Positions 1 to 15,225 of a stretch of 17,968 bases of DNA are shown here, one piece after another (position 1 is the stretch's first letter; the number at the start of each line of letters is the position of its first letter). The notes under the pieces were generated by a model. The model worked only from the letters and a program-made list of their open reading frames with translations. It was not told where the DNA came from and did not search any database. A program made the translations under genes and the position numbers. The stretch is from a virus (lineage: Duplodnaviria > Heunggongvirae > Uroviricota > Caudoviricetes): IMG/VR virus record IMGVR_UViG_2872185964_000004; one strand, written 5' to 3'.

Positions 1-1461
1 ATGAAAAAATTACTGCGTCTTTTTTTCCCGCTCTCGCTGCGGGTACGTTTTCTGTTGGCAACGGCTGCGGTAGTACTGGTGCTTTCGCTTGCCTACGGAA
101 TGGTCGCGCTGATCGGTTATAGCGTCAGTTTCGATAAAACTACGTTTCGGCTGTTACGTGGCGAGAGCAATCTGTTCTATACCCTTGCGAAGTGGGAAAA
201 CAATAAGTTGCATGTCGAGTTACCCGAAAATATCGACAAGCAAAGCCCCACCATGACGCTAATTTATGATGAGAACGGGCAGCTTTTATGGGCGCAACGT
301 GACGTGCCCTGGCTGATGAAGATGATCCAGCCTGACTGGCTGAAATCGAATGGTTTTCATGAAATTGAAGCGGATGTTAACGATACCAGCCTCTTGCTGA
401 GTGGAGATCATTCGATACAGCAACAGTTGCAGGAAGTGCGGGAAGATGATGACGACGCGGAGATGACCCACTCGGTGGCAGTAAACGTCTACCCGGCAAC
501 ATCGCGGATGCCAAAATTAACCATTGTGGTGGTGGATACCATTCCGGTGGAGCTAAAAAGTTCCTATATGGTCTGGAGCTGGTTTATCTATGTGCTCTCA
601 GCCAATCTGCTGTTAGTGATCCCGCTGCTGTGGGTCGCCGCCTGGTGGAGTTTACGCCCCATCGAAGCCCTGGCAAAAGAAGTCCGCGAACTGGAAGAAC
701 ATAACCGCGAATTGCTCAATCCAGCCACAACGCGAGAACTGACCAGTCTGGTACGAAACCTGAACCGATTGTTAAAAAGTGAACGCGAACGTTACGACAA
801 ATACCGTACGACGCTCACCGACCTGACCCATAGTCTGAAAACGCCACTGGCGGTGCTGCAAAGTACGCTGCGTTCTCTGCGTAGTGAAAAGATGAGCGTC
901 AGTGATGCTGAGCCGGTAATGCTGGAGCAAATCAGCCGCATTTCACAGCAAATTGGCTACTACCTGCATCGTGCCAGTATGCGCGGCGGGACATTGCTCA
1001 GCCGCGAGCTGCATCCGGTCGCCCCACTGCTGGACAATCTCACCTCAGCGCTGAACAAAGTGTATCAACGCAAAGGGGTCAATATCTCTCTCGATATTTC
1101 GCCAGAGATCAGCTTTGTCGGTGAGCAGAACGATTTTGTCGAGGTGATGGGCAACGTGCTGGATAATGCCTGTAAATATTGCCTCGAGTTTGTCGAAATT
1201 TCTGCAAGGCAAACCGACGAGCATCTCTATATTGTGGTCGAGGATGATGGCCCCGGTATTCCATTAAGCAAGCGAGAGGTCATTTTCGACCGTGGTCAAC
1301 GGGTTGATACTTTACGCCCTGGGCAAGGTGTAGGGCTGGCGGTAGCCCGCGAAATCACCGAGCAATATGAGGGTAAAATCGTCGCCGGAGAGAGCATGCT
1401 GGGCGGTGCGCGGATGGAGGTGATTTTTGGTCGCCAGCATTCTGCGCCGAAAGATGAATAA
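1..1461 (+). CDS. phoQ: Two-component sensor histidine kinase PhoQ
   Basis: 486-aa ORF with N-terminal TM segment, periplasmic acidic patch (EDDDDAEM), second TM, H-box ([10 protein letters not shown]) and HATPase motifs ([21 protein letters not shown]). Matches E. coli PhoQ as I recall it; ATG start at position 1. Confidence 0.97.
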
Positions 1462-1539
1462 ATATGTCCTTTTATCACCATATCAAGACAAACCATTGAT
1501 TTAATTAAATAATCTTCACTGCAAAAAGTGCCAAAAATC

Positions 1540-2035
1540 GCAAATTGACTACACCATTAACTACACCGTTCGGTGCACCGTATGAAACAACGTGGAACAA
1601 ATAGACACAAGAAATATACAGGCGGATCATCTTTCCAGGGGAAGCGCACCAATTCATGAGGGGCGTTAATGTCTATATGGGGATCCCCACCTACCGGAAT
1701 TTTTTTCCGGTTAAACGTTAATCAGGCTGGTGGGCTTTACCTGTTCGGTAGGTGTTATGATTATCGTAATACCTTTCCCCAATGGGGTAAAAGCATCAAC
1801 CGTAACGAAAGTCGTTATGGTTGCCACTGATACCCCAAATTTGGGTATCACGAGTAAGCCCCAAAATCTGGGTGTTACTCTTACTACCCAAACTACGGGT
1901 AGTTTCCGTAGTTTCATGGTCGAGTTGCAGATCTGCAACTCCCCCATTAACCACAGGCGAATTTCCGCCTTCGGTCATTCCTTAATCATCTGCGTAATCA
2001 TAATGATTATTCAGCAAGCGCAATTTTGCGCTTTG
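1540..2035. other. Palindrome-dense non-coding tract between phoQ and the packaging operon (candidate att/pac/ori or structured RNA region)
   Basis: Direct repeats ACTACACC (1548-1555, 1560-1567). Perfect or near-perfect dyads: CGGTGCACCG 1571-1580, TGGGGATCCCCA 1678-1689, CCGGAA-ttttt-TTCCGG 1694-1710, TAACGA-aag-TCGTTA 1803-1817, CCCAAATTTGGG 1834-1845, AAACTACGG-7nt-CCGTAGTTT 1890-1914, GAGTTGCAGATCTGCAACTC 1922-1941, AGGCG-6nt-CGCCT 1955-1970, TAATCAT-a-ATGATTA 1995-2009, AAGCGCAA-tt-TTGCGCTT 2016-2033. The ORFs in the track here overlap each other on both strands and look non-coding. Confidence 0.6.
1584..1613 (+). repeat. Three 10-bp-phased GAACAA-type repeats (site A); shares the 15-mer AACAACGTGGAACAA with site B
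   Basis: GAAACAAcgt / GGAACAAata / GACACAAgaa at an exact 10-bp period; 1586-1600 is identical to 9045-9059. Confidence 0.55.
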
Positions 2036-2195
2036 CTTAAAGTTCAGCGAGTTACCGCGCCGACTTCCTCAAATTGAGGTTTCCGAAAATATCAGCGGGT
2101 TAGCGATTAAGCTGACCATTAATTAAACTGCGAAAATGTCGTAGTTGTGAGGGGTGTAGCCAACCCATTTTTGGGCCGTCGGGAATATCAACCAG

Positions 2196-2477
2196 TTACC
2201 GCCGCAACCGCTCCGGCTTCTTCCAGTGGTACGTTATTTTCTCCTTCTCCCGATACATCTCCACGCGGCGACGGTAGGCCAGCAACTCAAGAACTCTGGT
2301 TCGTATGTTGCGCATATCCACGCCATTAAGTTCTATACCATCACGGCGCATCACCTCAGCAACAACACGCGCATAGTTTTCGGCTGTCACGCTGTCCGGC
2401 TGCGTGGCCTGTTCGTCAGCCTGCTGGCTGATTCCGGCAACGCGGCGGATTAATCCCGTTATTTCGGCTTCTGTCAT
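2196..2477 (-). CDS. Hypothetical protein (93 aa), last gene of the head/packaging operon
   Basis: ATG at 2477 preceded by TGAGGT Shine-Dalgarno; starts 11 nt after the TerL stop; no recognisable motifs. Confidence 0.5.
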   Translation of the reverse strand: MTEAEITGLIRRVAGISQQADEQATQPDSVTAENYARVVAEVMRRDGIELNGVDMRNIRTRVLELLAYRRRVEMYREKEKITYHWKKPERLRR

Positions 2478-2490
2478 GCTGCTGACCTCA

Positions 2491-4152
2491 TTACACCCCG
2501 CTAAATTCTTCCAGTTTCTGGCGGTGGCTGTCGCTTATATCAAAAGCAAAATCCTCATGCTCTGCCTGGAATGTACCAAACGCCATCAGCGCCGCCACGC
2601 TCGGGTCTATCTTGTTCGGTGATTTTTTCTTGTTCGGCTTGATATTGGCGTTCGCGTCACTCTGCATCACGACGTTACTCATCGACCAGGACAACACCGG
2701 ATCGCCACGATGCACAATCACCCTGCGGTTAACAAAAACTTCGAACGATTTCGCCGCCGGACTGAATCTGAGGTAGGTTTGCGGGAACGGCTCCACCTCA
2801 AAACCTGCCCCCTGTAATTGCGTTCTGAGATGCGTGGCGTTCCACGTATCAAAGCCCACCAGCCTGATATTAAATTTCTCCGCGTCCTGCATGATGTCAT
2901 CTCTGATCCGGTCGTAATCAATGCAGTCGCCAGGCGTTGTGCGTATCCAGCCTGCTTTAGCCCACTGACGATAGATGGCGCGGTTTTTATTGGCGGGGTT
3001 CTGTAGCTGGAACTCCGGCAGATAATGACGGGAAACCAGCATAATGGTTTTACCTACCGGAAAGGCATAGCACACGCTGGAAATATCGCTTGTGGATGAT
3101 AAATCCAGCCCCGCGTAACACTCCTGGCCGTGTAAATCTTCCTCCGTGAACGTTCCGGCACACTCAGCCCATGCGCCGTTACCCATCCACGGGGTAGTCC
3201 CCTGACACCAGATATTAAATCGCTTTGTCATCATCTCCACCCACTGCGACGGAATACCCCGCGCTTTCTGGATGGTTGAGGCCAGTTTTTCACGATCCAC
3301 GGAAACATCAATATTAGGGTTCGCTTTTATCCACATCGCCGGATCATCAACCTCGTTTTCGTCGTCCAGTTCGTAAATCAGTACAAAAATTGAATCGTTG
3401 ACCTCTTCGCCGTCCAGGATCTGGCAGCAATAATCATAGTGCTGCTTACAGGCTGAAACGACGTTACTGCCTGATGTGGTAATGGCAAATAACAGCCCTT
3501 CGGGACGTGCGCCCATCCCCAGCTCAAGCGCGGAATAAACGCCGTTATCGGGGTGTAGGTGGTATTCGTCCACGATGGAAAGGCTGGGGTTTGTTCCCTC
3601 GATGGTTGCCGCTTTTGCTGCCAGCGGCTTTAACAGGCTGTTGCTTTTCGGGTGTATCACCTTATGCGCCTGAATATTCACCCGCCTGCGTAACGGTCGG
3701 GATAAAAGGCACATCTGACGCGCATCATCAAAGACGATCCGCGCCTGGTCACGGCTCACCGCTGCGGTGTAAATATCCTGCTGACCGTTCTCCATAATCA
3801 GAAACCAGTTAGCCAGAATCGCGGCGGTCGTGGATTTCGCATTTTTGCGCGGCACTTCGATAAAGGCGCTCGTGTATTTGCGCCGTCCGGTGGCCTTAAC
3901 CTTAAAGCCGAGGATGCACGCAAAGGCGAACTGCTGCCACGGCTCCAGCTCAATGGGTCTGCCACGCATCGGTCCTTTTACGTGCGGGCACACCCTGGAA
4001 AAGGCAATAAACCGCTCCACAACCTCACGATCGAACGTGTAAAGGGGGCTTTTAAGATCCGAAAAGTACCGTTTAACGGCCTGTTTCAGCCGTTTACAGG
4101 CCGGAATTTTGCCCGTTTTTACGTCTTCTGCGTACTTATTCCAGGCGGTCAA
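2491..4152 (-). CDS. terL: Terminase large subunit (Terminase_1-type ATPase/nuclease)
   Basis: 553-aa ORF; Walker A-like VPRKNAKST; typical TerL length. Apparent TTG start at 4152 with AAGAGGA Shine-Dalgarno, overlapping the TerS 3' end by 17 nt. Confidence 0.9.
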   Translation of the reverse strand: MTAWNKYAEDVKTGKIPACKRLKQAVKRYFSDLKSPLYTFDREVVERFIAFSRVCPHVKGPMRGRPIELEPWQQFAFACILGFKVKATGRRKYTSAFIEVPRKNAKSTTAAILANWFLIMENGQQDIYTAAVSRDQARIVFDDARQMCLLSRPLRRRVNIQAHKVIHPKSNSLLKPLAAKAATIEGTNPSLSIVDEYHLHPDNGVYSALELGMGARPEGLLFAITTSGSNVVSACKQHYDYCCQILDGEEVNDSIFVLIYELDDENEVDDPAMWIKANPNIDVSVDREKLASTIQKARGIPSQWVEMMTKRFNIWCQGTTPWMGNGAWAECAGTFTEEDLHGQECYAGLDLSSTSDISSVCYAFPVGKTIMLVSRHYLPEFQLQNPANKNRAIYRQWAKAGWIRTTPGDCIDYDRIRDDIMQDAEKFNIRLVGFDTWNATHLRTQLQGAGFEVEPFPQTYLRFSPAAKSFEVFVNRRVIVHRGDPVLSWSMSNVVMQSDANANIKPNKKKSPNKIDPSVAALMAFGTFQAEHEDFAFDISDSHRQKLEEFSGV

Positions 4153-4492
4153 GCTCGTCCTCTTCTTCTGTTTCCGGTGGATTTTTACGGCGGCTTACCG
4201 GGTCAAAACCGAGCAAGGAGGCCATTTTTATCATCACTCTTTCAGCGTCGGATTTTGCGCTTAATGCGGGGTTTCTGCTCTCGCCGCCCTGACTGTTAAC
4301 AATGCTGAACCCGCGCGCCGCAAGGTCTGCGACGGCTTTGCGGTATATCGAGTAATTGACGCAATACAGTTCCAGATTGCTCCAGTCGGCGGGGGTCAGG
4401 TCTCCCCGTTCCGCAAGCTGCCGCGATTTTTCCCGCCACTGCTTCACGGCGATGTCATCCAGGTAGGCGGGGGCTTTCGGTGGTCTTGCCAT
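4136..4492 (-). CDS. terS: Terminase small subunit (P27-family-like)
   Basis: 118-aa ORF directly upstream of and overlapping terL; N-terminal basic region and acidic C-terminal tail (ETEEEDELDRLE) typical of small terminases; ATG at 4492. Confidence 0.78.
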   Translation of the reverse strand: MARPPKAPAYLDDIAVKQWREKSRQLAERGDLTPADWSNLELYCVNYSIYRKAVADLAARGFSIVNSQGGESRNPALSAKSDAERVMIKMASLLGFDPVSRRKNPPETEEEDELDRLE

Positions 4493-4613
4493 GCTTATTT
4501 TTCGTCAGATTATTTTTCAAAAAATTCCCGTGCATAAAAATTTGAGGAGGCGTTCGGTGCCCGGCGGGGTCGGGTTTGTCCTGAAAACGCCCCCACCCCG
4601 TCATACAGCCTCA

Positions 4614-4787
4614 TCAGCGATTGCGGAAACATTCCATAACCTCGCGGTCACGGTCGGTTAATCGCTTCGCTGTGATGCGTTCTGCGCGTCCTGACGCTTT
4701 ATCTTTATGCCCTGTTTCCTGTGTCTTCCATGCGTCACGCTGCCTTATAAGTCCACGGATAAGGCGGTTTTGTTCCCGCTCATTCAT
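4614..4787 (-). CDS. Putative small basic protein (57 aa) in the HNH-terS interval; uncertain
   Basis: ATG at 4787 overlaps the HNH stop by 4 nt (ATGAATGA). Product MNEREQNRLIRGLIRQRDAWKTQETGHKDKASGRAERITAKRLTDRDREVMECFRNR. The longer 134-aa ORF in the track overlaps HNH and is rejected. Confidence 0.25.
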   Translation of the reverse strand: MNEREQNRLIRGLIRQRDAWKTQETGHKDKASGRAERITAKRLTDRDREVMECFRNR

Positions 4788-5220
4788 CAGCGTCATACAT
4801 CCAGTTATTGCGGTTAGCGGCCCGTTCTTCCTCTTCACGAAATCCACCTGCGGCACGCTTGCTTTTTGTTGCCGGATCAAGCCACTTCGTTTTCTGGTTA
4901 TGACACGCCTGGCACAATGGCTGATGGTTCCATTCGGGCCAGAAGAGAACATCATCACCGCCATTAATCGGGATAATGTGATCCACCACCACGGCGGGCG
5001 TATATATCCCCTTCTCAAGGCATCGCACGCATAACGGGTTTTTACTCAGATACATGGCGCGGTATTTTTCCCACTGTCTGGAGTACCCACGCGCGCGGCG
5101 GTGTCCTCGTCTGGCATCCTCTGCACGCCATGCCGCCCGCCTGTGCTCCTCACACTTGCCGGACTTAACGCGCCTGTTACAGCCTGGTTCTGTACATCGT
5201 CTTAATGGTTGCCACGGCAT
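4780..5220 (-). CDS. HNH endonuclease (terminase-associated, HK97 gp74-like position)
   Basis: 146 aa; Cys-rich zinc-finger-like N-terminus (CTEPGCNRRVKSGKCEEH) and HNH core (VVDHIIPINGGDD...WNHQPLCQACHNQKT); sits directly upstream of terS as in cos-type HK97-like phages. Confidence 0.9.
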   Translation of the reverse strand: MPWQPLRRCTEPGCNRRVKSGKCEEHRRAAWRAEDARRGHRRARGYSRQWEKYRAMYLSKNPLCVRCLEKGIYTPAVVVDHIIPINGGDDVLFWPEWNHQPLCQACHNQKTKWLDPATKSKRAAGGFREEEERAANRNNWMYDADE

Positions 5221-5516
5221 CAGTACACCCCCACATCACGGTAAGCCGTCCAGAGCGCGCCAATCGTCATGGGTACGCGCGTTTTTGCGTTATCCACTAC
5301 CAGCTGGCGATTCTCGTACAGGTGAGCGATAAACATCATGCAGCCAATCTTTATGGCTGGCGTGAACTCCAGCCCGTCATCAAAGCGCCTGCCTATATGT
5401 ATCTGGCACGCCTCAAGCGATGCGGCAATGTATCCGCTGATTAACTGGTCTTCCTCGTCGCCATCGATGCGGCAATGGAGTTTCACTTCTTCCAGGGTGA
5501 TAAGTTCTTCTGTCAT
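5220..5516 (-). CDS. Head-tail connector / DNA-packaging protein (gp6-like, Phage_connect_1-type)
   Basis: 98 aa; N-terminal signature LITLEEVKLHCRIDGDEEDQLISGYIAAS typical of gp6-like connectors; its ATG overlaps the upstream stop (ATGA at 5513-5516). Confidence 0.72.
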   Translation of the reverse strand: MTEELITLEEVKLHCRIDGDEEDQLISGYIAASLEACQIHIGRRFDDGLEFTPAIKIGCMMFIAHLYENRQLVVDNAKTRVPMTIGALWTAYRDVGVY

Positions 5517-5851
5517 TTTTCCGCGCCCTCACGACAAAGAATTTCAAGGCGTGTCCTGGCGGCATCCGGCAGCGGTTGCCCGATGATATTCAGTACACGC
5601 CCCGCCAGCGGCCCCGTATTGACCTTTATCCGGCTGGTGGCGTTGATGTCCTTCCGGTACCGTATCCAGATCCTTACGGTACCAATCGCCAGCTCTGCAC
5701 CCGATGAAATGGCCTCCTTGCTGCTGATCATGTTCACGCTTGCCCAGAGTGTGTGACCGTCCTCCCACGTTTCGAGTATTTCGCCGGTTATATCCCTGGT
5801 CTGTTTCAGGGTCTGAATCGTTACCCTGTCACGCAGTCGCCCTATGTTCAT
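5513..5851 (-). CDS. Head-closure / head-tail adaptor protein
   Basis: 112 aa starting MNIGRLRDRVTIQ (head-closure family N-terminal signature); its ATG overlaps the portal stop (ATGA at 5848-5851). Confidence 0.72.
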   Translation of the reverse strand: MNIGRLRDRVTIQTLKQTRDITGEILETWEDGHTLWASVNMISSKEAISSGAELAIGTVRIWIRYRKDINATSRIKVNTGPLAGRVLNIIGQPLPDAARTRLEILCREGAEK

Positions 5852-7059
5852 TCCGGCTTTTCTCCCTCGCTGATTTTTACTTCCTGTTTCCATGCCTGGC
5901 TGAACTCATCACCACCATCACGCGGGGACAGCCCTTCACGTTCGCGGGCTTCGTTCGGGCACATAACGCCGGATTTGATGCCGCGTTCATAGGTGGCAAA
6001 GCGTTCGCCAGGTGTGGCCCGTAACAGGTCCGCGCTGTCAAACTCCACCTGATACCGGATACCAGGTACAGGTGAGGCCACCAGCAGGGCGTTTTTTATC
6101 TGCTGCTCAAAGTTCGCCAGCCACGGGCGCATCGTCATGGTGAGAAATGCGCGGCTTGCCTCGCTGAAATTGCTGTAGGTGCTGTTGCTGTATTCCTGCA
6201 GAAAAATCGGCGAGACGTTGAACATTCGGGCGATGTCTTCAATGGTGAAGCGACGGGAGGCCAGCCATTCAGCATCCTGATTACTCATGCCCAGCTGCTG
6301 ATAGCTCATACCCCCTTCAAGGATGGGCGTTTTTCCGGCGTTTCTGGCCCCTTTGTAGCGTTCCAGTGCGGCTAATGCCTGTTTGCCCTTCACGCCGTCC
6401 AGCCATTCGCCTGACGTGATAACCCCTGCCGCCATCATGCCATCACGCATCACGCTCGCGCCGTGGCGCTGTTGGGCCAGCCCAAGCCCCAGCGATTCTC
6501 GGCAGATGGTTACAGGTGAGCGCCCCATAAAACCGTCATCCGTGGAGTAACGAAGGTGGAGAACCTCCCACGGTAAATAGTTGCGGGTGTTTCCGGTGTA
6601 GGCGTCAGTGATGCAGTAGCGCCAGTTATGCTCACCTGTCTGCTCAACGTTCACCGACTGCGGCGGGTAAGGATGCAAAGCGACCGGAAAACCATCACGC
6701 CCCCACTGAATCACCGCATAAGCATTACCGTTTAACAGGCAGTGGCGGATCATCATTCGCTTAAACTGGTAGGGGGTTTGCCATGCGTTCGGGCGCTCGT
6801 TGAGGATGTGATCGACCGGATGAGAATCAAGCCACTCGCGGGCCTCCTTCCCCTTCTCATTGCGTACCAGGTACAGGTAACACGGCATGGTAGCCACCGC
6901 CTCAGAGATGACCGTCACGGCATTCATGACGGCGGGCAGTGATTCCGCTGTCCCCGATGATACGTACTCACCCGCCCCCGTGTTCGATGTGCCAGCCAGC
7001 GCCATAAACTCATCAAGCGTCATGCTGCGCTGCTCTTTTTTTCTTCTGAAAGGCCACAT
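5848..7059 (-). CDS. Portal protein (HK97-family)
   Basis: 403 aa, typical portal size and composition; ATG at 7059 lies 1 nt after the protease stop. Confidence 0.88.
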   Translation of the reverse strand: MWPFRRKKEQRSMTLDEFMALAGTSNTGAGEYVSSGTAESLPAVMNAVTVISEAVATMPCYLYLVRNEKGKEAREWLDSHPVDHILNERPNAWQTPYQFKRMMIRHCLLNGNAYAVIQWGRDGFPVALHPYPPQSVNVEQTGEHNWRYCITDAYTGNTRNYLPWEVLHLRYSTDDGFMGRSPVTICRESLGLGLAQQRHGASVMRDGMMAAGVITSGEWLDGVKGKQALAALERYKGARNAGKTPILEGGMSYQQLGMSNQDAEWLASRRFTIEDIARMFNVSPIFLQEYSNSTYSNFSEASRAFLTMTMRPWLANFEQQIKNALLVASPVPGIRYQVEFDSADLLRATPGERFATYERGIKSGVMCPNEAREREGLSPRDGGDEFSQAWKQEVKISEGEKPE

Positions 7060-7060
7060 A

Positions 7061-7519
7061 TCACACCCCCGCTAAATCCGCCCACCAGCGGCGATTATCC
7101 GCACGCGGCATTTTTTCGGGGTGCTGCTCATACAGGGAACGGCGGGCCAGCTCCACGTCGGAATCAGGGTAAGCCGGTACGGATGTAACGGTAATTTCGT
7201 ACAGTTCCGCCACCAGCACGGTGCGCACGCATGGATCTGTTGTGGTATCCCATACATCCTTACGGGAACGAAAGCCAAAGCTCATGCCGGATATATCACC
7301 TCGTTTAACCAGTTCGATAACGTCGCGCCCTGTACTGGTATCCGGTGGGGTCAGTTCAAAGCGTAACCCTGTTTCGTCCTCTTCCAGTTTCAGCGTGCCG
7401 GAACGGGTGCGCCCCAGTAACATGCTGTGGTCATGCTCATACAGGCCGCGAACGTCATTACCCGCCGCAAGCCATTCAGTAAACGCCCCCCGCTGGAATT
7501 TTTCGTAAAACTCACCCAT
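7061..7519 (-). CDS. Prohead protease (HK97 family, S78 peptidase); N-terminus apparently displaced into another frame
   Basis: 152-aa ORF with protease core motifs (GEFYEKFQRGAF, HDHSMLLGRT, GTLKLEEDETGL, SFGF). The expected N-terminus (MKSMEIRSSEITTSGAGTLTGYIVCWDKLSELL) is encoded in a different frame at 7520-7617. Confidence 0.85.
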   Translation of the reverse strand: MGEFYEKFQRGAFTEWLAAGNDVRGLYEHDHSMLLGRTRSGTLKLEEDETGLRFELTPPDTSTGRDVIELVKRGDISGMSFGFRSRKDVWDTTTDPCVRTVLVAELYEITVTSVPAYPDSDVELARRSLYEQHPEKMPRADNRRWWADLAGV

Positions 7520-7641
7520 AACAGTTCTGAAAGCTTATCCCAGCAAACAATGTAGCCCGTCAGCGTACCGGCTCCGCTGGTGGTGATTTCCGATGACCGG
7601 ATTTCCATACTCTTCATAATTTTTTCACCCATAAAACACTA

Positions 7642-7661
7642 AAGGGGCTTTTAAGCCCCTT
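7642..7661 (-). terminator. Stem-loop between the major capsid and protease genes (possible attenuator or mRNA stabiliser)
   Basis: On the minus strand: AAGGGGCTT-AA-AAGCCCCTT followed by TTTAGTGTTTTAT, in the 39-nt gap after the capsid stop. Confidence 0.35.
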
Positions 7662-7671
7662 CTGTATGCTG

Positions 7672-8829
7672 TTAATCGTCGTCCTGTGGCAGTTCCAGAA
7701 TCTTGATCGCGTTCGAATCCACCACGCCACCGCCTAAATATTTCTGCGCGAAAATTTTGATGAAGCCCGGCTCTGTGAGGTTGTCCGGTCTGGTGCGAAC
7801 ACCTGTTTCGTGATCAACAATGTAGTAACCGCGTTTGAAGTCACCCAGGGCAATAACGTTATCCGGCATAAACTCCAGATATTCGACCGGAAGGCCCAGC
7901 AACGTATCAGGATCACCCGCCTGTAAACGGTCACGCCAGATGTAATCACCGTTCGCGTTCTTCACCTTCTGGAGTTTTGCCGCCGTCGTGGAGTTAACCA
8001 CCCAGACCGCGTTTTTGCGGTATTTTTTACGTAATGCAAATTTCAGGTCGATCAGCGGGTCCGCAGATGTCCACGCCAGAGATTCGGAAGGTTTAATTAC
8101 CTGCAACGTACCAAAATCACGCTCTTTGTCGTTCTTCTCTGCACGGGGTACGGATAAAAAGCCTTTTGCTTTTTTGTCACCGTCGCCCACAACCAGATCG
8201 CTTTCTTCGGTTTCCGTGAAGGTGTCGCCAATCTCGCCCGTCAGCCATGAAAGGATGTCCACATCGGAAAAATCCACAATTTCCTGCGTGGTGCGCGGGT
8301 ACGCATAGACCGGATACAGCTTAATGCTCACCTCGTTAATCTGCGGGGTGCTGGTCTGTTCGCGTGCCTTACCCTCTTCACCGTGGTTAACGGTCGCACC
8401 GCCAGCGGAAACAAGCTGCTTAAACTCGTTGCTGCTGATTTTCTTCACGGTACAGATGCGGCGCATGGTGGATTCATCCGTCAGCATTCGCATGATTTCG
8501 GTGTTCAGTTCGGGGATAACGGTATAACCACCATCAGCGGGAACGCCTGTACTCAATGCGCGGGTTTCACCTGTCAGAATGTAGTGACGTAGTTCGGCGG
8601 GGTCAGTGGTCTGGCTGTTTTTGCCTGGTTTACTGCGCTCTTCGTCAGCAACGGCCTCAAGGCGGGAGATGTCTTTATCGAGTGATTCAGCTTTAGCGCG
8701 TAATTCGTCAAATTTTGCGCCCTCAGCATCGTTAAGGCTGCGGTTTTCTTTTTCCGCGTTCTCCAGCATGTCGCGCATCTGATTTTTAATGGCGGTTTTC
8801 TGCTGGCGTAATTCGATTATTCTCGGCAT
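7672..8829 (-). CDS. Major capsid protein (HK97 fold) with N-terminal coiled-coil delta/scaffold-like domain
   Basis: 385 aa from the ATG at 8829 (MPRIIELRQQKTAIKNQMRDM...); charged helical N-terminal ~100 aa followed by a capsid-like body; the track ORF begins 16 codons earlier at a non-ATG start. Confidence 0.88.
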   Translation of the reverse strand: MPRIIELRQQKTAIKNQMRDMLENAEKENRSLNDAEGAKFDELRAKAESLDKDISRLEAVADEERSKPGKNSQTTDPAELRHYILTGETRALSTGVPADGGYTVIPELNTEIMRMLTDESTMRRICTVKKISSNEFKQLVSAGGATVNHGEEGKAREQTSTPQINEVSIKLYPVYAYPRTTQEIVDFSDVDILSWLTGEIGDTFTETEESDLVVGDGDKKAKGFLSVPRAEKNDKERDFGTLQVIKPSESLAWTSADPLIDLKFALRKKYRKNAVWVVNSTTAAKLQKVKNANGDYIWRDRLQAGDPDTLLGLPVEYLEFMPDNVIALGDFKRGYYIVDHETGVRTRPDNLTEPGFIKIFAQKYLGGGVVDSNAIKILELPQDDD

Positions 8830-9040
8830 AAAAAAAGTCCTGAAGTTAAGTAAGGAACTCCAGGACGCGGCAAACACTCAACCGTTTTTCATAAGGAAAT
8901 CAGCAATCGCACCGATCGTTTTCCCGCCTGGTAATGAATATTGGCGAGCACATTAACAGGCGGGAAAGTGGCCCCAGCGTCCTGGCACCACGGGCGAGAA
9001 TAATCATGATTCAGTTCGGGTAAAATATGCCGATCCGGTC

Positions 9041-9070
9041 AGCGAACAACGTGGAACAACCACGAACAAA
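9041..9070 (+). repeat. Three 10-bp-phased GAACAA repeats (site B) in the promoter region of the head operon
   Basis: GAACAA at 9044-9049, 9054-9059 and 9064-9069; 15-mer AACAACGTGGAACAA at 9045-9059 is identical to site A; lies between the terminator and the capsid gene. Confidence 0.55.
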
Positions 9071-9086
9071 TAATTTACAAAACATG

Positions 9087-9109
9087 ACAAAAAGCCGGAT
9101 TGCTCCGGC
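9087..9109 (-). terminator. Rho-independent terminator closing the replication/early operon
   Basis: On the minus strand: GCCGGA-GCAA-TCCGGC (perfect 6-bp stem, GNRA-like loop) immediately followed by TTTTTGT. Confidence 0.65.
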
Positions 9110-9116
9110 TGTGTGA

Positions 9117-9389
9117 TTATCTGTCCTGGTAATTTCGCCATATTTCATCACCAGCACCATCCATACCCATTTCGGCATAAGTGCGATCGACCGCCTTTTT
9201 CAGGTCTCCGTAATTATCCGGCGGCTCCGGTGGCCTCTGTGCCTTCCTGGAACATTCCAGCCGTCGCATCGTGATGTGATGCCGTTCCTTGTCTGTCTCC
9301 ACCAGTTGCATGACTTCACCCCATCGCGCCGACGCTCTCCGGTAAAAGCCTTTCGCCTCCAGTTCTTCCGCTATGCGGTCATGTACCAT
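9117..9389 (-). CDS. Hypothetical small protein (90 aa), possible regulator
   Basis: ATG at 9389 with GAGGGG Shine-Dalgarno (the track ORF starts at an upstream GTG); charged helical protein. Confidence 0.5.
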   Translation of the reverse strand: MVHDRIAEELEAKGFYRRASARWGEVMQLVETDKERHHITMRRLECSRKAQRPPEPPDNYGDLKKAVDRTYAEMGMDGAGDEIWRNYQDR

Positions 9390-9401
9390 CGTCCCCACCC
9401 C

Positions 9402-9812
9402 TCAGAACGGAATATCATCACCGTAAGGGTCATCGCCTCCCGCTGGTGGCTGATTACCCTGTGTGCCTGTGGTCTTGCGTCGGCTCCCACCAGGACGTGC
9501 CGCACGGGCACTGATTACGCTGTCTGCAATAACCTGATAACCCTGCCGCGTTTCCCCGTTCTGTCCGGTCCACTGGCTGACCTGCATCGTGCCGGATACG
9601 CTGGCAACGTCGCCTTTTTGATGTTTAGCCAGGAAGTCGGCCTGCTTACCAAATGCGATGACCGATAGCCATAACGTCGCCTGTCCATCCTGTGCCTGGC
9701 TGCATGGCAGCGATACCGCCATACGCGCCAGCGTCATCGGTGTACCCTTGCTGGTCTGTTTTACCTGCGGGTCGTCCACCAGCCGCCCGTAAGCTGCAAT
9801 TTGTGCTGTCAT
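9402..9812 (-). CDS. ssb: Single-stranded DNA-binding protein
   Basis: 136 aa; OB-fold-like N-terminus, Gly/Pro/Gln-rich linker and the diagnostic acidic C-terminal tail ...DDPYGDDIPF; ATG at 9812 with GAGGTGG Shine-Dalgarno. Confidence 0.85.
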   Translation of the reverse strand: MTAQIAAYGRLVDDPQVKQTSKGTPMTLARMAVSLPCSQAQDGQATLWLSVIAFGKQADFLAKHQKGDVASVSGTMQVSQWTGQNGETRQGYQVIADSVISARAARPGGSRRKTTGTQGNQPPAGGDDPYGDDIPF

Positions 9813-9821
9813 ATTGCCACC

Positions 9822-10112
9822 TCAGTGAAGCGATCCGGCGTTGTTCTTTTTCATCTCTTCCATCATTTTTTCAGTGAGCATTACGCACTGAAAACCCATG
9901 TTTTTGATGTCTACGGGTTTCATGCCTTTGTCAGTGGATATCACAGGCAGAATATCCTGATACACATCGCGGTCAGGGTAACTAAGCACACAAAGCGCCC
10001 ATGATGCCACGGGTGAGGATCCTTCGTCTGTTTCAACCCACCAGCCTGGTGTAGCTGCGCTTATTTGCTGAATCGTGATCCGTCCGTTGTGCTTGTAAAG
10101 TTTTTTCACCAA
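9822..10112 (-). CDS. Hypothetical protein (~96 aa)
   Basis: ORF with a non-ATG (TTG/GTG) start near 10109-10112; no motifs recognised. A separate 31-codon ATG ORF overlaps the upstream stop in another frame. Confidence 0.4.
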   Translation of the reverse strand: MVKKLYKHNGRITIQQISAATPGWWVETDEGSSPVASWALCVLSYPDRDVYQDILPVISTDKGMKPVDIKNMGFQCVMLTEKMMEEMKKNNAGSLH

Positions 10113-10124
10113 ATTTTGGTTCGC

Positions 10125-10376
10125 TCATGATTCCAACTCTCCGGTTTTAACGTTGATTGTTGTTACCTGTTCCGCTTCGGCAATCTCCCGTTCTGTCAGC
10201 GTGGCAAAGTTTGCCGCCGCCGTGGTCATGAATGCGCTTATCAGGTCGGGATGTTCCTTCGCGTATCCTTCCCGCGTGTGGCGGTCTATCATTCTGATTG
10301 CCACCTTTAAGGTGTGCTCAGTCATGTCTAACGCTTTATATTTTGGCTCTGTTCTGTCTCTGCGTTTTTGGGTCAT
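10125..10376 (-). CDS. Hypothetical protein (83 aa)
   Basis: ATG at 10376 with GAGAGG Shine-Dalgarno; the track ORF begins upstream inside the iteron region. Confidence 0.45.
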   Translation of the reverse strand: MTQKRRDRTEPKYKALDMTEHTLKVAIRMIDRHTREGYAKEHPDLISAFMTTAAANFATLTEREIAEAEQVTTINVKTGELES

Positions 10377-10388
10377 TTCTCGCAACCT

Positions 10389-10576
10389 CTCACTTTTTCG
10401 CCTCACTTTTTCAAGCGTCTCACTTCGTCGCAGTTGGGATTTTCGGTTTTTCTATGTGTGTGTTTCATAAGTATTTTTTTACCCCTCACTTTTGAGGATG
10501 TATACAGGTCGAAAAGTGAGGGGAGCGGGCTAATTTTGGCCCTCTTTCTACCCCCTCGCTTTTGCTCCTCACTTTT
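10389..10576. repeat. Iteron cluster (CTCACTTTT) with an embedded 12-bp inverted repeat; putative replication origin
   Basis: CTCACTTTT or variants at 10389-10397, 10402-10410, 10419-10426, 10485-10493, 10555-10563, 10568-10576. Inverted pair CCCCTCACTTTT (10482-10493) / AAAAGTGAGGGG (10512-10523) with an 18-bp spacer. Sits immediately 3' of the RepA-like ATPase gene. Confidence 0.5.
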
Positions 10577-11558
10577 ATAGCGGCGCTACATCATCCCCAT
10601 CGATACGAATAACCCCATCTTTTTCCAGCTTGTACAGCCAGCGCCGGAAGTTTTTCATTTCATACCCCAGCTTTTTCATGTCATCACGTAACAGCTGGAT
10701 CGTGCACTTGTCGCCGTTCTGTGTGCGTGAACGGATGCACCCCCATAGCGCGGTATGGTTTTCCGTCTTGTTCCCTGCCTCCTCTATGCGCTCCAGTTCA
10801 ACAGGAGGGCGCGGATCATCCACCACCACCAGCGACGTGATTAATTCACCGTCAGCGTCGGTAAAAAGCTCCACCACGCGTAAGTCATATGCGGCTTCTT
10901 TGAGTTCCTCCGCGTCCTTCATTTTGGTGCATGAGATAACCAGCGCTTCGCTTCCTGCGTCCTCCCTGCGTATCCGGTATTCAGCATCCAGCGAAGCACG
11001 AAATGCACTGGAGCCGCGCGCGCCTTTCGTCTCATCCTTGCCGGAATGGTGAACCACCAGCACCGTGGCCCCTGTGCGTCGTTTCAGTTCGTCACAACCA
11101 CGGATAAACGCCCCCATATCACGGGAATCATTTTCATCATTCCCACCAAAGCAACGCGCCAGCGTATCCAGAATAATCATGCGTACAGGTTTACCCGTTT
11201 CCCGCTCCACCTGACGGGCAGCGATAACCATTTCATCAACATCAAGCGGGGCAGCCGGAAAGATGGGGCGGTTTACCAGATACAGATTTTTCACCTGCTC
11301 ATCGTGCACAACCTCCCAGGCTTTTACACGACGCGGAACACCTATACCGCCTTCACCAACCACATAGAGAACCGCACCATGTGCAACCCTGCGGCCTCCC
11401 CACTGGCGACCAGTGGCAACATGGCACGCCCACGATCCGGCAAGGAATGATTTATAGGACCCGCTAGCCCCGTATATGCTGCATAGCGATACCGCCGGAA
11501 TAATCCCCTTAACCACGTAATCCAGTTGCGTGTCGTATCCGGTAGATCCAACGCTCAT
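10575..11558 (-). CDS. AAA_25 / RepA-like RecA-fold ATPase (replication helicase-like protein)
   Basis: P-loop GASGSYKS, Walker B IILDTL, and the HHSGK...RGSSAF motif characteristic of RepA/DnaB-like ATPases. Start placed at ATG 11558, which overlaps the upstream stop (ATGA at 11555-11558); an in-frame ATG at 11660 is the alternative. Confidence 0.75.
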   Translation of the reverse strand: MSVGSTGYDTQLDYVVKGIIPAVSLCSIYGASGSYKSFLAGSWACHVATGRQWGGRRVAHGAVLYVVGEGGIGVPRRVKAWEVVHDEQVKNLYLVNRPIFPAAPLDVDEMVIAARQVERETGKPVRMIILDTLARCFGGNDENDSRDMGAFIRGCDELKRRTGATVLVVHHSGKDETKGARGSSAFRASLDAEYRIRREDAGSEALVISCTKMKDAEELKEAAYDLRVVELFTDADGELITSLVVVDDPRPPVELERIEEAGNKTENHTALWGCIRSRTQNGDKCTIQLLRDDMKKLGYEMKNFRRWLYKLEKDGVIRIDGDDVAPL

Positions 11559-11974
11559 CGGTAGCGTGGTTTTTCGCTGGTGGTTTTTTTCTTCCACCGG
11601 CTCTTTCCCGCGCACCCGTTCCAGGTATTCGCGCCAGTTCTCCCGCATATGGCTGTGCATCCCTTCGGGTAATAATTCGCATCAGTTACACCCGCCGCCG
11701 CCAGCTTGTGCGCAATGGCATTAATATTTGATGGCCTGATGTGGCCTGCCTTGTACAGCCGGACACAATAGCGCCCCTCGTCGATGATTCTCAGGTCTGC
11801 CAGTTCATCCAGTTGATCATCAGCCAGCACAACGGGAGGCACATTATCGCCAGCCAGTCGCCCGTCCTGTTCCTGCCACTGTTTCGCATGTGCCCAGGCA
11901 TCACTACCCGCAAAAATAATGACTTCGGTCATCTTGTCGTAAGGCTGTTTTTTTAAGTTCGGTGCGCTTTTCAT
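11555..11974 (-). CDS. Hypothetical protein (139 aa), co-translated with the ATPase
   Basis: ATG at 11974 overlapping the upstream stop (ATGA at 11971-11974); no confident motif. Confidence 0.5.
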   Translation of the reverse strand: MKSAPNLKKQPYDKMTEVIIFAGSDAWAHAKQWQEQDGRLAGDNVPPVVLADDQLDELADLRIIDEGRYCVRLYKAGHIRPSNINAIAHKLAAAGVTDANYYPKGCTAICGRTGANTWNGCAGKSRWKKKTTSEKPRYR

Positions 11975-12270
11975 TTCTTGCCCCTGAATCCGTTAATCAT
12001 GGTTTTCAGCTTCTGGATGTTTGCCCGTGCCCTGGCGTTGCTGGTGGGCACGTTATGCGGCGCGGTCTGTACCAGAGAAAAATCACGCCGGAACTGATAA
12101 ACAGACATCACGCAATCATATTCGTAACCTTCACGGCGGTAGGTTACACGCCGTTCTTCCACGCCCTTAATCATTACCGTGCCGCCGTACTGGTCGCGGT
12201 AAATATCACCGCGCGTAAATTTAGGGTGAGTGTTGCCACTGGCAGTTAAGCCAGAATATTTAAGTTTCAT
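11971..12270 (-). CDS. Hypothetical protein (99 aa)
   Basis: ATG at 12270 with GGAG upstream; basic protein. Confidence 0.5.
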   Translation of the reverse strand: MKLKYSGLTASGNTHPKFTRGDIYRDQYGGTVMIKGVEERRVTYRREGYEYDCVMSVYQFRRDFSLVQTAPHNVPTSNARARANIQKLKTMINGFRGKK

Positions 12271-12275
12271 TATTT

Positions 12276-12509
12276 TTATTCTCCGGTGTGCTGTTCTTTA
12301 TATCTGTCGTGCAATAGATCTATTTCTTGCAGTTCCATTATTACAGGCTCAAGAAGCGTTATTAATGCCGTGGCAATTCTTGATTTTTGTTCGTCGCGTT
12401 CATTGTCGCCAAGTGTTTCAAGCCATATGCGCAATATTTCCAGCATGTTTTCACTGTGAGAAAGTGCAAGAAATGCGCGGTCTATTGTTTCGTGGTAAAT
12501 ATCACGCAT
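12276..12509 (-). CDS. Hypothetical protein (77 aa), first gene of the replication operon
   Basis: ATG at 12509 with GAGGA Shine-Dalgarno; the IS1 composite is inserted 76 bp upstream of this start codon. Confidence 0.5.
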   Translation of the reverse strand: MRDIYHETIDRAFLALSHSENMLEILRIWLETLGDNERDEQKSRIATALITLLEPVIMELQEIDLLHDRYKEQHTGE

Positions 12510-12576
12510 GGCTTACATCCTCAGGAAATTTTCTTCTGTAACGCGCCTCTGCCACATATTCCGCATAATCGGCGGC

Positions 12577-12585
12577 GATATTCAG
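12577..12585. repeat. 9-bp target-site duplication GATATTCAG (left copy)
   Basis: Identical 9-mer directly abuts the outer IS1 ends at 12577-12585 and 14098-14106. Confidence 0.85.
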
Positions 12586-13329
12586 GGTGATGCTGCCAAC
12601 TTACTGATTTAGTGTATGATGGTGTTTTTGAGGTGCTCCAGTGGCTTCTGTTTCTATCAGCTGTCCCTCCTGTTCAGCTACTGACGGGGTGGTGCGTAAC
12701 GGCAAAAGCACTGCCGGACATCAGCGCTATCTCTGCTCTCACTGCCGTAAAACATGGCAACTGCAGTTCACTTACACCGCTTCTCAACCCGGTACGCACC
12801 AGAAAATTATTGATATGGCCATGAATGGCGTTGGATGCCGGGCAACTGCACGCATTATGGGCGTTAGCCTCAACACGATTTTACGTCACTTAAAAAACTC
12901 AGGCCGCAGTCGGTAACCTCGCGCATACAGCCGGGCAGTGACGTCATCGTCTGCGCGGAAATGGACGAACAGTGGGGATACGTCGGGGCTAAATCGCGCC
13001 AGCGCTGGCTGTTTTACGCGTATGACAGGCTCCGGAAGACGGTTGTTGCGCACGTATTCGGTGAACGCACTATGGCGACGCTGGGGCGTCTTATGAGCTT
13101 GCTGTCACCCTTTGACGTGGTGATATGGATGACGGATGGCTGGCCACTGTATGAATCCCGCCTGAAGGGAAAGCTGCACGTAATCAGCAAGCGATATACG
13201 CAGCGAATTGAGCGGCATAACCTGAATCTGAGGCAGCACCTGGCACGGCTGGGACGGAAGTCGCTGTCGTTCTCAAAATCGGTGGAGCTGCATGACAAAG
13301 TCATCGGGCATTATCTGAACATAAAACAC
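12586..13329 (+). mobile_element. IS1 copy 1 (744 bp, lacks the right terminal inverted repeat)
   Basis: Begins with the IS1 left inverted repeat GGTGATGCTGCCAACTTACTGAT; contains insA, the A6C frameshift motif (12892-12898) and the insB frame; ends at ...AACATAAAACAC and is directly abutted by copy 2. Confidence 0.93.
12641..12916 (+). CDS. insA: IS1 InsA (copy 1)
   Basis: 91-aa product [22 protein letters not shown]...[11 protein letters not shown] start. Confidence 0.93.
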
Positions 13330-13356
13330 GGTAATGCTGCCAACTTACTGATTTAG
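12868..13356 (+). CDS. insB: IS1 insB reading frame (copy 1), expressed as the InsAB' transposase by -1 frameshift
   Basis: insB frame with transposase motifs. An in-frame TAG at 12865-12867 lies upstream of the frameshift site, so the fusion is unaffected. The C-terminus is altered (...[12 protein letters not shown]) because the frame runs into copy 2. Confidence 0.8.
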
Positions 13357-13384
13357 TGTATGATGGTGATTTTAAGGTGCTTGC

Positions 13385-13660
13385 GTGGCTTCCATTTCCA
13401 TCAGATGTCCTTCCTGCTCCGCTACTGAAGGCGTGGTGCGTAACGGCAAAAGCACTGCCGGACATCAGCGCTATCTCTGCTCTCATTGCCGTAAAACATG
13501 GCAACTACAGTTCACTTACACCGCCTCTCAGCCCGGTACGCACCAGAAAATCATTGATATGGCCATGAATGGCGTCGGATGTCGCGCCAGTGCACGCATT
13601 ATGGGCGTTGGCCTCAACACGGTTTTACGTCACTTAAAAAACTCAGGCCGCAGTCGGTAA
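13385..13660 (+). CDS. insA: IS1 InsA (copy 2)
   Basis: 91-aa product [22 protein letters not shown]...; A6C frameshift motif at 13636-13642. Confidence 0.93.
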
Positions 13661-14082
13661 CCTCGCGCATACAACCGGGCAGTGATGTGATTGTCTGCGC
13701 TGAAATGGACGAACAGTGGGGCTACGTCGGTGCTAAATCACGTCAGCGCTGGCTGTTTTACGCGTATGACAGGATACGGAGGAGGGTTGTGGCGCACGTC
13801 TTCGGTGAACGCACTCTGGCCACACTGGAGCGTCTTCTGAGCCTGCTGTCGGCCTTTGAGGTCGTGGTATGGATGACGGATGGCTGGCCGCTGTATGAAT
13901 CACGCCTGAAGGGAAAGCTGCACGTTATCAGCAAGCGTTACACTCAGCGCATTGAGCGACATAATCTGAATCTGAGACAACATCTGGCAAGGCTGGGACG
14001 GAAGTCACTGTCGTTCTCAAAATCGGTGGAGCTGCATGACAAGGTCATCGGGCATTATCTGAACATAAAACACTATCAGTAA
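13579..14082 (+). CDS. insB: IS1 InsB (copy 2)
   Basis: 167-aa ORF ending ...HYLNIKHYQ, the canonical InsB C-terminus. Confidence 0.9.
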
Positions 14083-14097
14083 GTTGGAGTCATTACC

Positions 14098-14613: not shown

Positions 14614-14830
14614 GGTGCACCTCCTGCACATCAGCCATGATAATTTTTCCGGCCTTATCCAGTGCCTGATCGGCTTTTAGCTGCACAAATGCTAAATAAT
14701 GGAAGATGCATTCTGATTCTCTGGCTGCGTGTTTATGCGCCCTGTCAGCAATAACAGAAATATCAATCAGCGCATGCATTAGCGTTATGATGGCTTCGGC
14801 GGCTGCGTCCGGACGGGTGTTATTGCACAT
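14606..14830 (-). CDS. Hypothetical protein B (74 aa)
   Basis: ATG at 14830 with AGGAGG Shine-Dalgarno; overlaps the gene A 3' end by 11 nt. Confidence 0.6.
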   Translation of the reverse strand: MCNNTRPDAAAEAIITLMHALIDISVIADRAHKHAARESECIFHYLAFVQLKADQALDKAGKIIMADVQEVHHA

Positions 14831-15026
14831 GGCACACCTCCTGACGAATACGGGCAGCGAATACCATCACGCAGCCAGCCGGGGATTGCTGGCGTGCTTC
14901 CTGTTCGCTGGTGGCCTCGATGGTAATCACGCGCGGTTGTGCCGTGCTCAGGGCGATAAAACGCCAGATGTATTTATTCAGGTCGTGCGAGTCCCGCCCT
15001 TGCGGGTGTGTGGTATGATTTCTCAT
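14820..15026 (-). CDS. Hypothetical protein A (68 aa), first gene of the leftward operon
   Basis: ATG at 15026 with GAGG Shine-Dalgarno. This is the only credible part of the 333-aa track ORF 14820-15821, whose remainder crosses the operator region and is antisense to the RHH gene. Confidence 0.55.
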   Translation of the reverse strand: MRNHTTHPQGRDSHDLNKYIWRFIALSTAQPRVITIEATSEQEARQQSPAGCVMVFAARIRQEVCHVQ

Positions 15027-15123
15027 AGCTGCCTCGATACTTTCGCTATCGTTGGTGGTTAGAAGCCCGGTTAGTGTTAGCGCACTGCCGGGTTTCGTCG
15101 TTTCTGCACCTTGCGCCAACAAG

Positions 15124-15175
15124 GTGTTGAACACCAATTTAAACCCAGGTGTTAAACACGTCAAGTGTTGAACAC
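15124..15175. promoter_or_regulatory. Three palindromic operator-like sites GTGTT(G/A)AACAC in a divergent promoter region
   Basis: GTGTTGAACAC 15124-15134, GTGTTAAACAC 15149-15159, GTGTTGAACAC 15165-15175. A candidate sigma70 promoter for the RHH gene (-35 TTGAAC 15168-15173, 17-bp spacer, -10 CATACT 15191-15196) overlaps the third site. Confidence 0.6.
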
Positions 15176-15225
15176 TTATTTTTTTTCCTGCATACTGCAT
15201 TTGTTTTTTATGAGGGGTACACCAC

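Follow-up and report, generated by a model that had tools for sequence, protein, structure and literature searches.

The prohead protease gene of a phage satellite in the Shigella chromosome CP026872.1 is divided between two reading frames, and comparison with sequences of the same lineage indicates that this frameshift is very probably an artifact of the CP026872.1 assembly. One G of a run of four (G4) would have been under-called in the consensus of that record, and the true gene in this Shigella dysenteriae lineage would be an ordinary, intact HK97-family prohead serine protease of 190 amino acids (aa). The same under-calling would have given rise to nine other G/C-run deletions in ~24.6 kb and would have falsely split the genes for RepA and for a 439-aa protein.

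The DNA analyzed here, a stretch of 17,968 nucleotides (nt) referred to as the window, matches CP026872.1 (GCA_002950295.1), a Shigella chromosome of 4.71 Mb, with 100% identity along 17,519 nt. GCA_002950295.1 appears among Shigella genomes in PMC12679885, where it is given without species or platform, and NCBI names the proteins of this island allele Shigella dysenteriae. Coordinates of the features discussed are collected in Table 1.

Two-frame layout of the protease locus

On the minus strand, the protease N terminus and the catalytic body occupy separate frames, with the body in the -1 frame. This split, which an earlier note on the same DNA had described, is real in the sequence and not a chance pattern of open reading frames (ORFs), as borne out by the ORFs at 7632..7390 and 7519..7061. 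The N-terminal ORF reads MKSMEIRSSEITTSGAGTLTGYIVCWDKLSELLW and then runs through unrelated sequence until a stop at 7390; the intact homologues inspected have a single 190-aa ORF reading ...SELLWGEFYEKF.... The gene measures 572 nt in the window versus the 573 nt (190 aa) of intact copies, and the alignment to intact homologues for which the earlier note had asked located the indel in the G4 run, where a 1-nt deletion leaves TATGGGTGAG in the window versus TATGGGGTGAG (or TATGGGGGGAG) in relatives. Because one G is missing from this run, the body falls in the -1 frame. A single-nucleotide indel at the join had thus been anticipated correctly, but it had been placed at 7519-7525, and the run at 7515-7517 lies a few bases off, on the other side of the ATG. 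That ATG, at 7519, is present only because of the deletion, as intact copies read TTA TGG GGT there.

The 80-aa ORF alone has no Pfam match, and the 152-aa ORF alone matches Peptidase_S78 at profile positions 30-160 (144 bits, E 8e-42). The joined, repaired protein covers positions 2-159 of the 165 in the profile, with a score of 168 bits (cut-off, 21) and an E value of 2e-49, in agreement with the earlier view that the two pieces read together as one continuous HK97-family protease. HK97 gp4 is the prototype of this family (PF04586), and the match, which extends almost end to end along the profile, is the full-length one that marks a member of the HK97-family prohead proteases; in RefSeq the homologues go by the name "HK97 family phage prohead protease." Motifs that contain His and Ser, YEHDH and GMSFGF, can be seen in the protease sequence and have a putative catalytic role. 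A PDB sequence search with the repaired protease returned no relatives.

The protease also carries a substitution, R30C (CGC to TGC at codon 30; window 7543-7545, minus strand), in the conserved N-terminal strand. R30C is private to the S. dysenteriae lineage (proteins P0002 and P0003) and was used as a lineage marker; none of the three E. coli copies aligned across this codon has it.

Table 1. Coordinates of the protease locus, neighboring genes and single-base deletions in the window
Feature	Coordinates	Strand	Remarks
Prohead serine protease gene (HK97 family, Pfam S78) of the satellite	7061..7632	-	Appears as two ORFs
N-terminal ORF	7632..7390	-	80 aa, starts MGEKIMKSMEIRSSEITTSGAGTLTGYIVCWDKLSELLWVSFTKNSS; ATG 7632 (MGEKIM...), second Met 7617
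Catalytic-body ORF	7519..7061	-	152 aa, starts MGEFYEKFQRGAF
Lesion	7515..7517	-	G3 run (CCC on + strand); G4 (or G6) in relatives
Major capsid protein (HK97 fold family, PF05065), predicted protease substrate	7672..8829	-	385 aa as called; intact
Portal protein (PF04860)	5848..7059	-	403 aa, or 391 aa from second Met; intact; directly downstream of protease
RepA-family helicase	10575..11974	-	Split into 139 + 327/361 aa; G4 to G3 at ~11666-11669; 466 aa in same-lineage contigs
439-aa island gene	14820..16138	-	Split into 143 + 333 aa; C4 to C3 at ~15744 (converted from L025 position 12225)
Two abutting IS1 copies	12586..14097	+	12586-13329 without right end; 13330-14097 full, 768 nt
Noncoding deletion, G5 to G4	1637..1641		One of seven deletions besides those in protease, RepA and 439-aa gene
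Further private G/C-run deletions	~1780, 4594, 10523, 10555, 14119, 16499		Relative to same-lineage contigs

The protease within a phage satellite

Judged by its genes, the element is a capsid-forming PICI-type (cf-PICI) phage satellite located between roxA and phoQ. Along the minus strand the order is integrase, AlpA-type regulator, small genes, DUF4222 protein, RepA-family helicase, SSB and PerC, then capsid, protease, portal, head-closure protein, connector, HNH, TerS and TerL, and no tail or lysis genes were found in the gene content of the ~15-kb element between roxA and phoQ. The protease adjoins the capsid gene upstream and the portal gene downstream on the same strand, as in a head module of the HK97 type. 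Across this module (5848-8877, minus strand) the order capsid, protease, portal was kept in all relatives inspected; it differs from that of phage HK97 itself, in which the genes run portal, protease, capsid.

The island resembles cf-PICIs such as EcCIEDL933 in having an integrase, a replication module with a RepA helicase or primase, and an HK97-type packaging operon of its own, but no tail genes. Unlike EcCIEDL933, it contains two IS1 copies, and its 101-aa gene is split. The cf-PICI packaging operon derives from HK97-like phages, and EcCIEDL933 is induced by a helper phage, has a capsid protein that is matured by proteolysis, and forms small capsids that lack tails and acquire those of the helper (10.1101/2025.02.11.637232). 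T=4 capsids, induction and helper dependence are traits of cf-PICIs, to which the Shigella island is likened by gene content. By homology with HK97 gp4, and in line with the cf-PICI literature, the protease would co-assemble into the satellite procapsid and trim the major capsid protein at maturation.

The two IS1 copies, which are ~91% identical to each other, lie within the stretch of small genes, upstream of the genes for the DUF4222 protein and RepA. Contigs assembled from short reads of sister strains come to a stop at both IS1 edges, which makes an insertion at this site look real. A T6 run at ~10101-10106 (9822-10127 region, minus strand) is T5 in most relatives, and the +1 breaks up a conserved hypothetical gene of 101 aa into pieces of 31 and 62 aa; since the same split is called in the same-lineage contig L024 (ERR5984614), the T-run +1 appears to be a genuine lineage mutation.

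Homologues in complete E. coli genomes

A 701-nt query across the protease gene matched 361 complete E. coli genomes. Of the 40 matches listed, nearly all spanned 702 nt and every one was annotated "HK97 family phage prohead protease," and every annotated protease copy inspected was 573 nt long and encoded 190 aa. With 161 nt around the lesion as the query, none of the 349 matching complete E. coli genomes reached 99% identity, and the deletion was absent from complete E. coli genomes, with all 60 matches listed spanning 162 nt versus the 161 nt of the query. Copies of the island with ~96% identity were present in many O157:H7 genomes.

FORC_042, the closest complete genome, was 98.98% identical over 12.6 kb and differed from the window by nine single-base indels. 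Eight of the nine were deletions in the window; seven of these eight shortened a homopolymer run, and one split RepA. When seven complete E. coli relatives were taken for comparison, 6 single-base deletions and 17 SNPs proved private to the window, while the same seven relatives together had, by our own tally, ~4-5 such indels and ~400 private SNPs. This contrast was suggestive but confounded by the choice of relatives, and it was superseded by the same-lineage comparison. An exact look-up of the window's capsid protein for close relatives returned 523 index blocks, and ten of the ten places shown had a 190-aa protease; it was uninformative because the protein is too widespread.

Ten bases missing relative to same-lineage contigs

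The protease was rebuilt with the G restored and R30C retained, RepA was rebuilt likewise, and both were submitted to an exact protein look-up. The repaired protease was found exactly (P0002; EFZ8624908.1 and HBP9463259.1, "Shigella dysenteriae"), with four contigs listed and five read: L023 (GCA_014039615.1, 24 kb), L024 (Logan, ERR5984614) and three similar places. The repaired RepA was also found exactly (P0016), its matches including EFZ8624902.1, of the same annotation series as EFZ8624908.1. Both L023 and L024 encode the 190-aa protease and the 466-aa RepA, and an intact protease with the private R30C is present in three or more independent data sets of this lineage. A pseudogene inherited within the lineage is contradicted by the S. 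dysenteriae contigs (GCA_014039615.1, ERR5984614 and others), in which the run is GGGG and the product has 190 aa. Outside CP026872.1, no assembly was found to contain the frameshift products of this allele (the truncated RepA fragment and the window's 152-aa allele).

Window positions 1-12581 align to L023 with no substitutions and seven single-base gaps (~1641, 1780, 4594, 7517, 10523, 10555 and 11669), at each of which the window has lost a G or C from a G/C run of 4-6. L024 sides with L023 at all five of the gap sites that it covers, and has one SNP. On the integrase side, past the IS1 pair, a 9,044-nt comparison with L029, a contig from the same assembly as L023, revealed three G/C-run deletions in CP026872.1 (~16499, 15744 and 14119 in window coordinates) and one substitution; L031 (ERR5750970), which covers one of these deletion sites and the substitution, sides with L029 at both. 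The total relative to these same-lineage contigs, which derive from short reads, is ten G/C-run deletions, one substitution and no insertions in the ~24.6 kb compared, a comparison of assemblies with an assembly, in which the comparison assemblies may be sister isolates and not the same culture. The core flanks (potA, pepT, roxA, phoQ, phoP, purB and hflD; ~9.6 kb) are identical between CP026872.1 and the sister contigs.

The sole substitution falls at window position 16260, in the AlpA-type gene (minus strand), with T in the window versus C in L029 and L031. It was read by hand as Ala40Val in a 62-aa AlpA-family regulator, and the annotation of CP026872.1 lacks an AlpA gene.

In E. coli mutation accumulation, substitutions exceed small indels several times over, mismatch-repair mutants included, and the errors that typically persist in a long-read-only consensus are one-directional homopolymer deletions. 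Ten one-way G/C-run deletions versus one substitution point to the signature of assembly error and not to a mutation spectrum. The likeness to homopolymer under-calling in long-read-only assemblies includes the loss, in all ten cases, of one base from a G/C run of 4-6, the near absence of substitutions, and genes that would have been falsely split. Sequencing error was among the options that the earlier note had offered for the split, and it is now the favored one, as the additional G is present in independent assemblies of this island allele, an outcome that the note had named as a refutation.

Placement of the deletions and a second lesion in the same tract

The placement of the deletions does not fit this pattern. 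Unlike the prediction of an under-calling model, the deletions in CP026872.1 avoid long coding runs: among G/C runs of at least 5, 6 of 9 noncoding runs were deleted versus none of 17 coding ones (Fisher ~4e-4, hand calculation), and among G/C runs of 4, deletions affected 4 of 75 coding runs and none of 23 noncoding ones. Blind errors should not respect coding status, and this bias is left unexplained. Selection cannot account for it, because the branch has about one substitution; it could stem from GC-rich hairpins within terminators between genes, or from curation of only part of the assembly. All ten deletions lie in the island (10 of 93 runs versus 0 of 31 in the ~9.6 kb of core flanks), a difference that is not significant (p = 0.065). 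The idea that the island is a multi-copy repeat that escaped short-read polishing was rejected, as the island of a sister strain assembles from short reads into one 24-kb contig, and the nonsignificant contrast between island and core weakens it as well.

A lesion of the same protease tract was also observed in a Logan contig from SRR24962225 (L006), which carries a different allele, 99.6% identical to FORC_042-type islands and 98.3% identical to the window. This contig has a -1 of its own (CTATGGGGGAG) at L006 540-546, readable either as G6 to G5 or as the loss of a T after G4, and it is the only other contig to encode the exact 152-aa product. It also has a -2 in an A7 run at L006 ~1016-1021, at the 5' end of the portal gene. 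The SRR24962225 lesion may reflect a second error-prone data set or a real slippage hotspot. Since a second, unrelated contig is also short one base there, the tract could be a genuine slippage hotspot. We consider it very unlikely, however, that the G tract at the boundary of codons 38-39 serves as a hotspot that switches capsid maturation, and hence satellite transfer, off and on; were this true, natural "off" variants would be represented twice, by the isolate behind CP026872.1 and by the SRR24962225 sample.

Alternative explanations

If an old culture-collection Shigella isolate had lost one G by replication slippage, the split gene would be a genuine, strain-specific pseudogene; the protease would then be inactive or present only as fragments, and the satellite would be unable to mature its capsids. 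Shigella genomes are known for gene decay, and the island itself has real damage common to sister strains, namely the IS1 pair and the T-run +1 that splits the 101-aa gene. The independent hit to the same tract in SRR24962225 would also suit a pseudogene, as would the sparing of long coding runs, which selection rather than blind error predicts. Yet ten one-way G/C-run deletions alongside one substitution in ~24.6 kb correspond to no known mutation spectrum, and the branch is too short for selection to have given the coding bias, least of all in dispensable satellite genes. With the intact gene and R30C in the independent same-lineage data sets, and the frameshift products of this allele confined to one assembly, a genuine pseudogene is quite improbable. 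The earlier suggestion of a mutated protease that affects capsid maturation is accordingly unsupported, the independent assemblies of the same allele being intact.

A functional protease lacking its N terminus could be made as a 152-aa form from ATG 7519, with the catalytic His and Ser regions kept; this ORF has an ATG start, covers S78 positions 30-160 and is called by gene callers. Its start codon, however, was created by the deletion, the 15 nt upstream of 7519 (...tcagaactgtt ATG) contain no Shine-Dalgarno-like purine run, and the N-terminal 38 residues (profile positions 2-29) are present in every intact homologue inspected. No homologue inspected starts at the position equivalent to 7519, so that the naturally truncated form proposed earlier gains no support, and we judge a functional protein of this kind extremely improbable. 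Programmed -1 ribosomal frameshifting could join the two frames, and the body does lie in the -1 frame, but the junction CUG UUA UGG GUG (U UAU GGG U) lacks a heptamer of the form X XXY YYZ. The two-frame layout occurs in none of the 12 intact homologues inspected and in no same-lineage contig, and is not conserved. Because the slippery heptamer is lacking and the gene is single-frame in every intact homologue inspected, programmed frameshifting, which the earlier note had rightly thought unlikely, is excluded as barely conceivable.

Implications for the satellite and its host record

An under-called G in the assembly remains the preferred explanation of the split protease, and it calls for caution: from this record, the satellite's protease, RepA helicase and 439-aa gene would be wrongly scored as pseudogenes. 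Pseudogene counts for CP026872.1 are likely inflated by under-calls in G/C runs. What is known of prohead proteases and of cf-PICIs is unchanged by this result. In the island as corrected, the head and packaging module is predicted to be intact in this S. dysenteriae lineage, and the satellite may form capsids.
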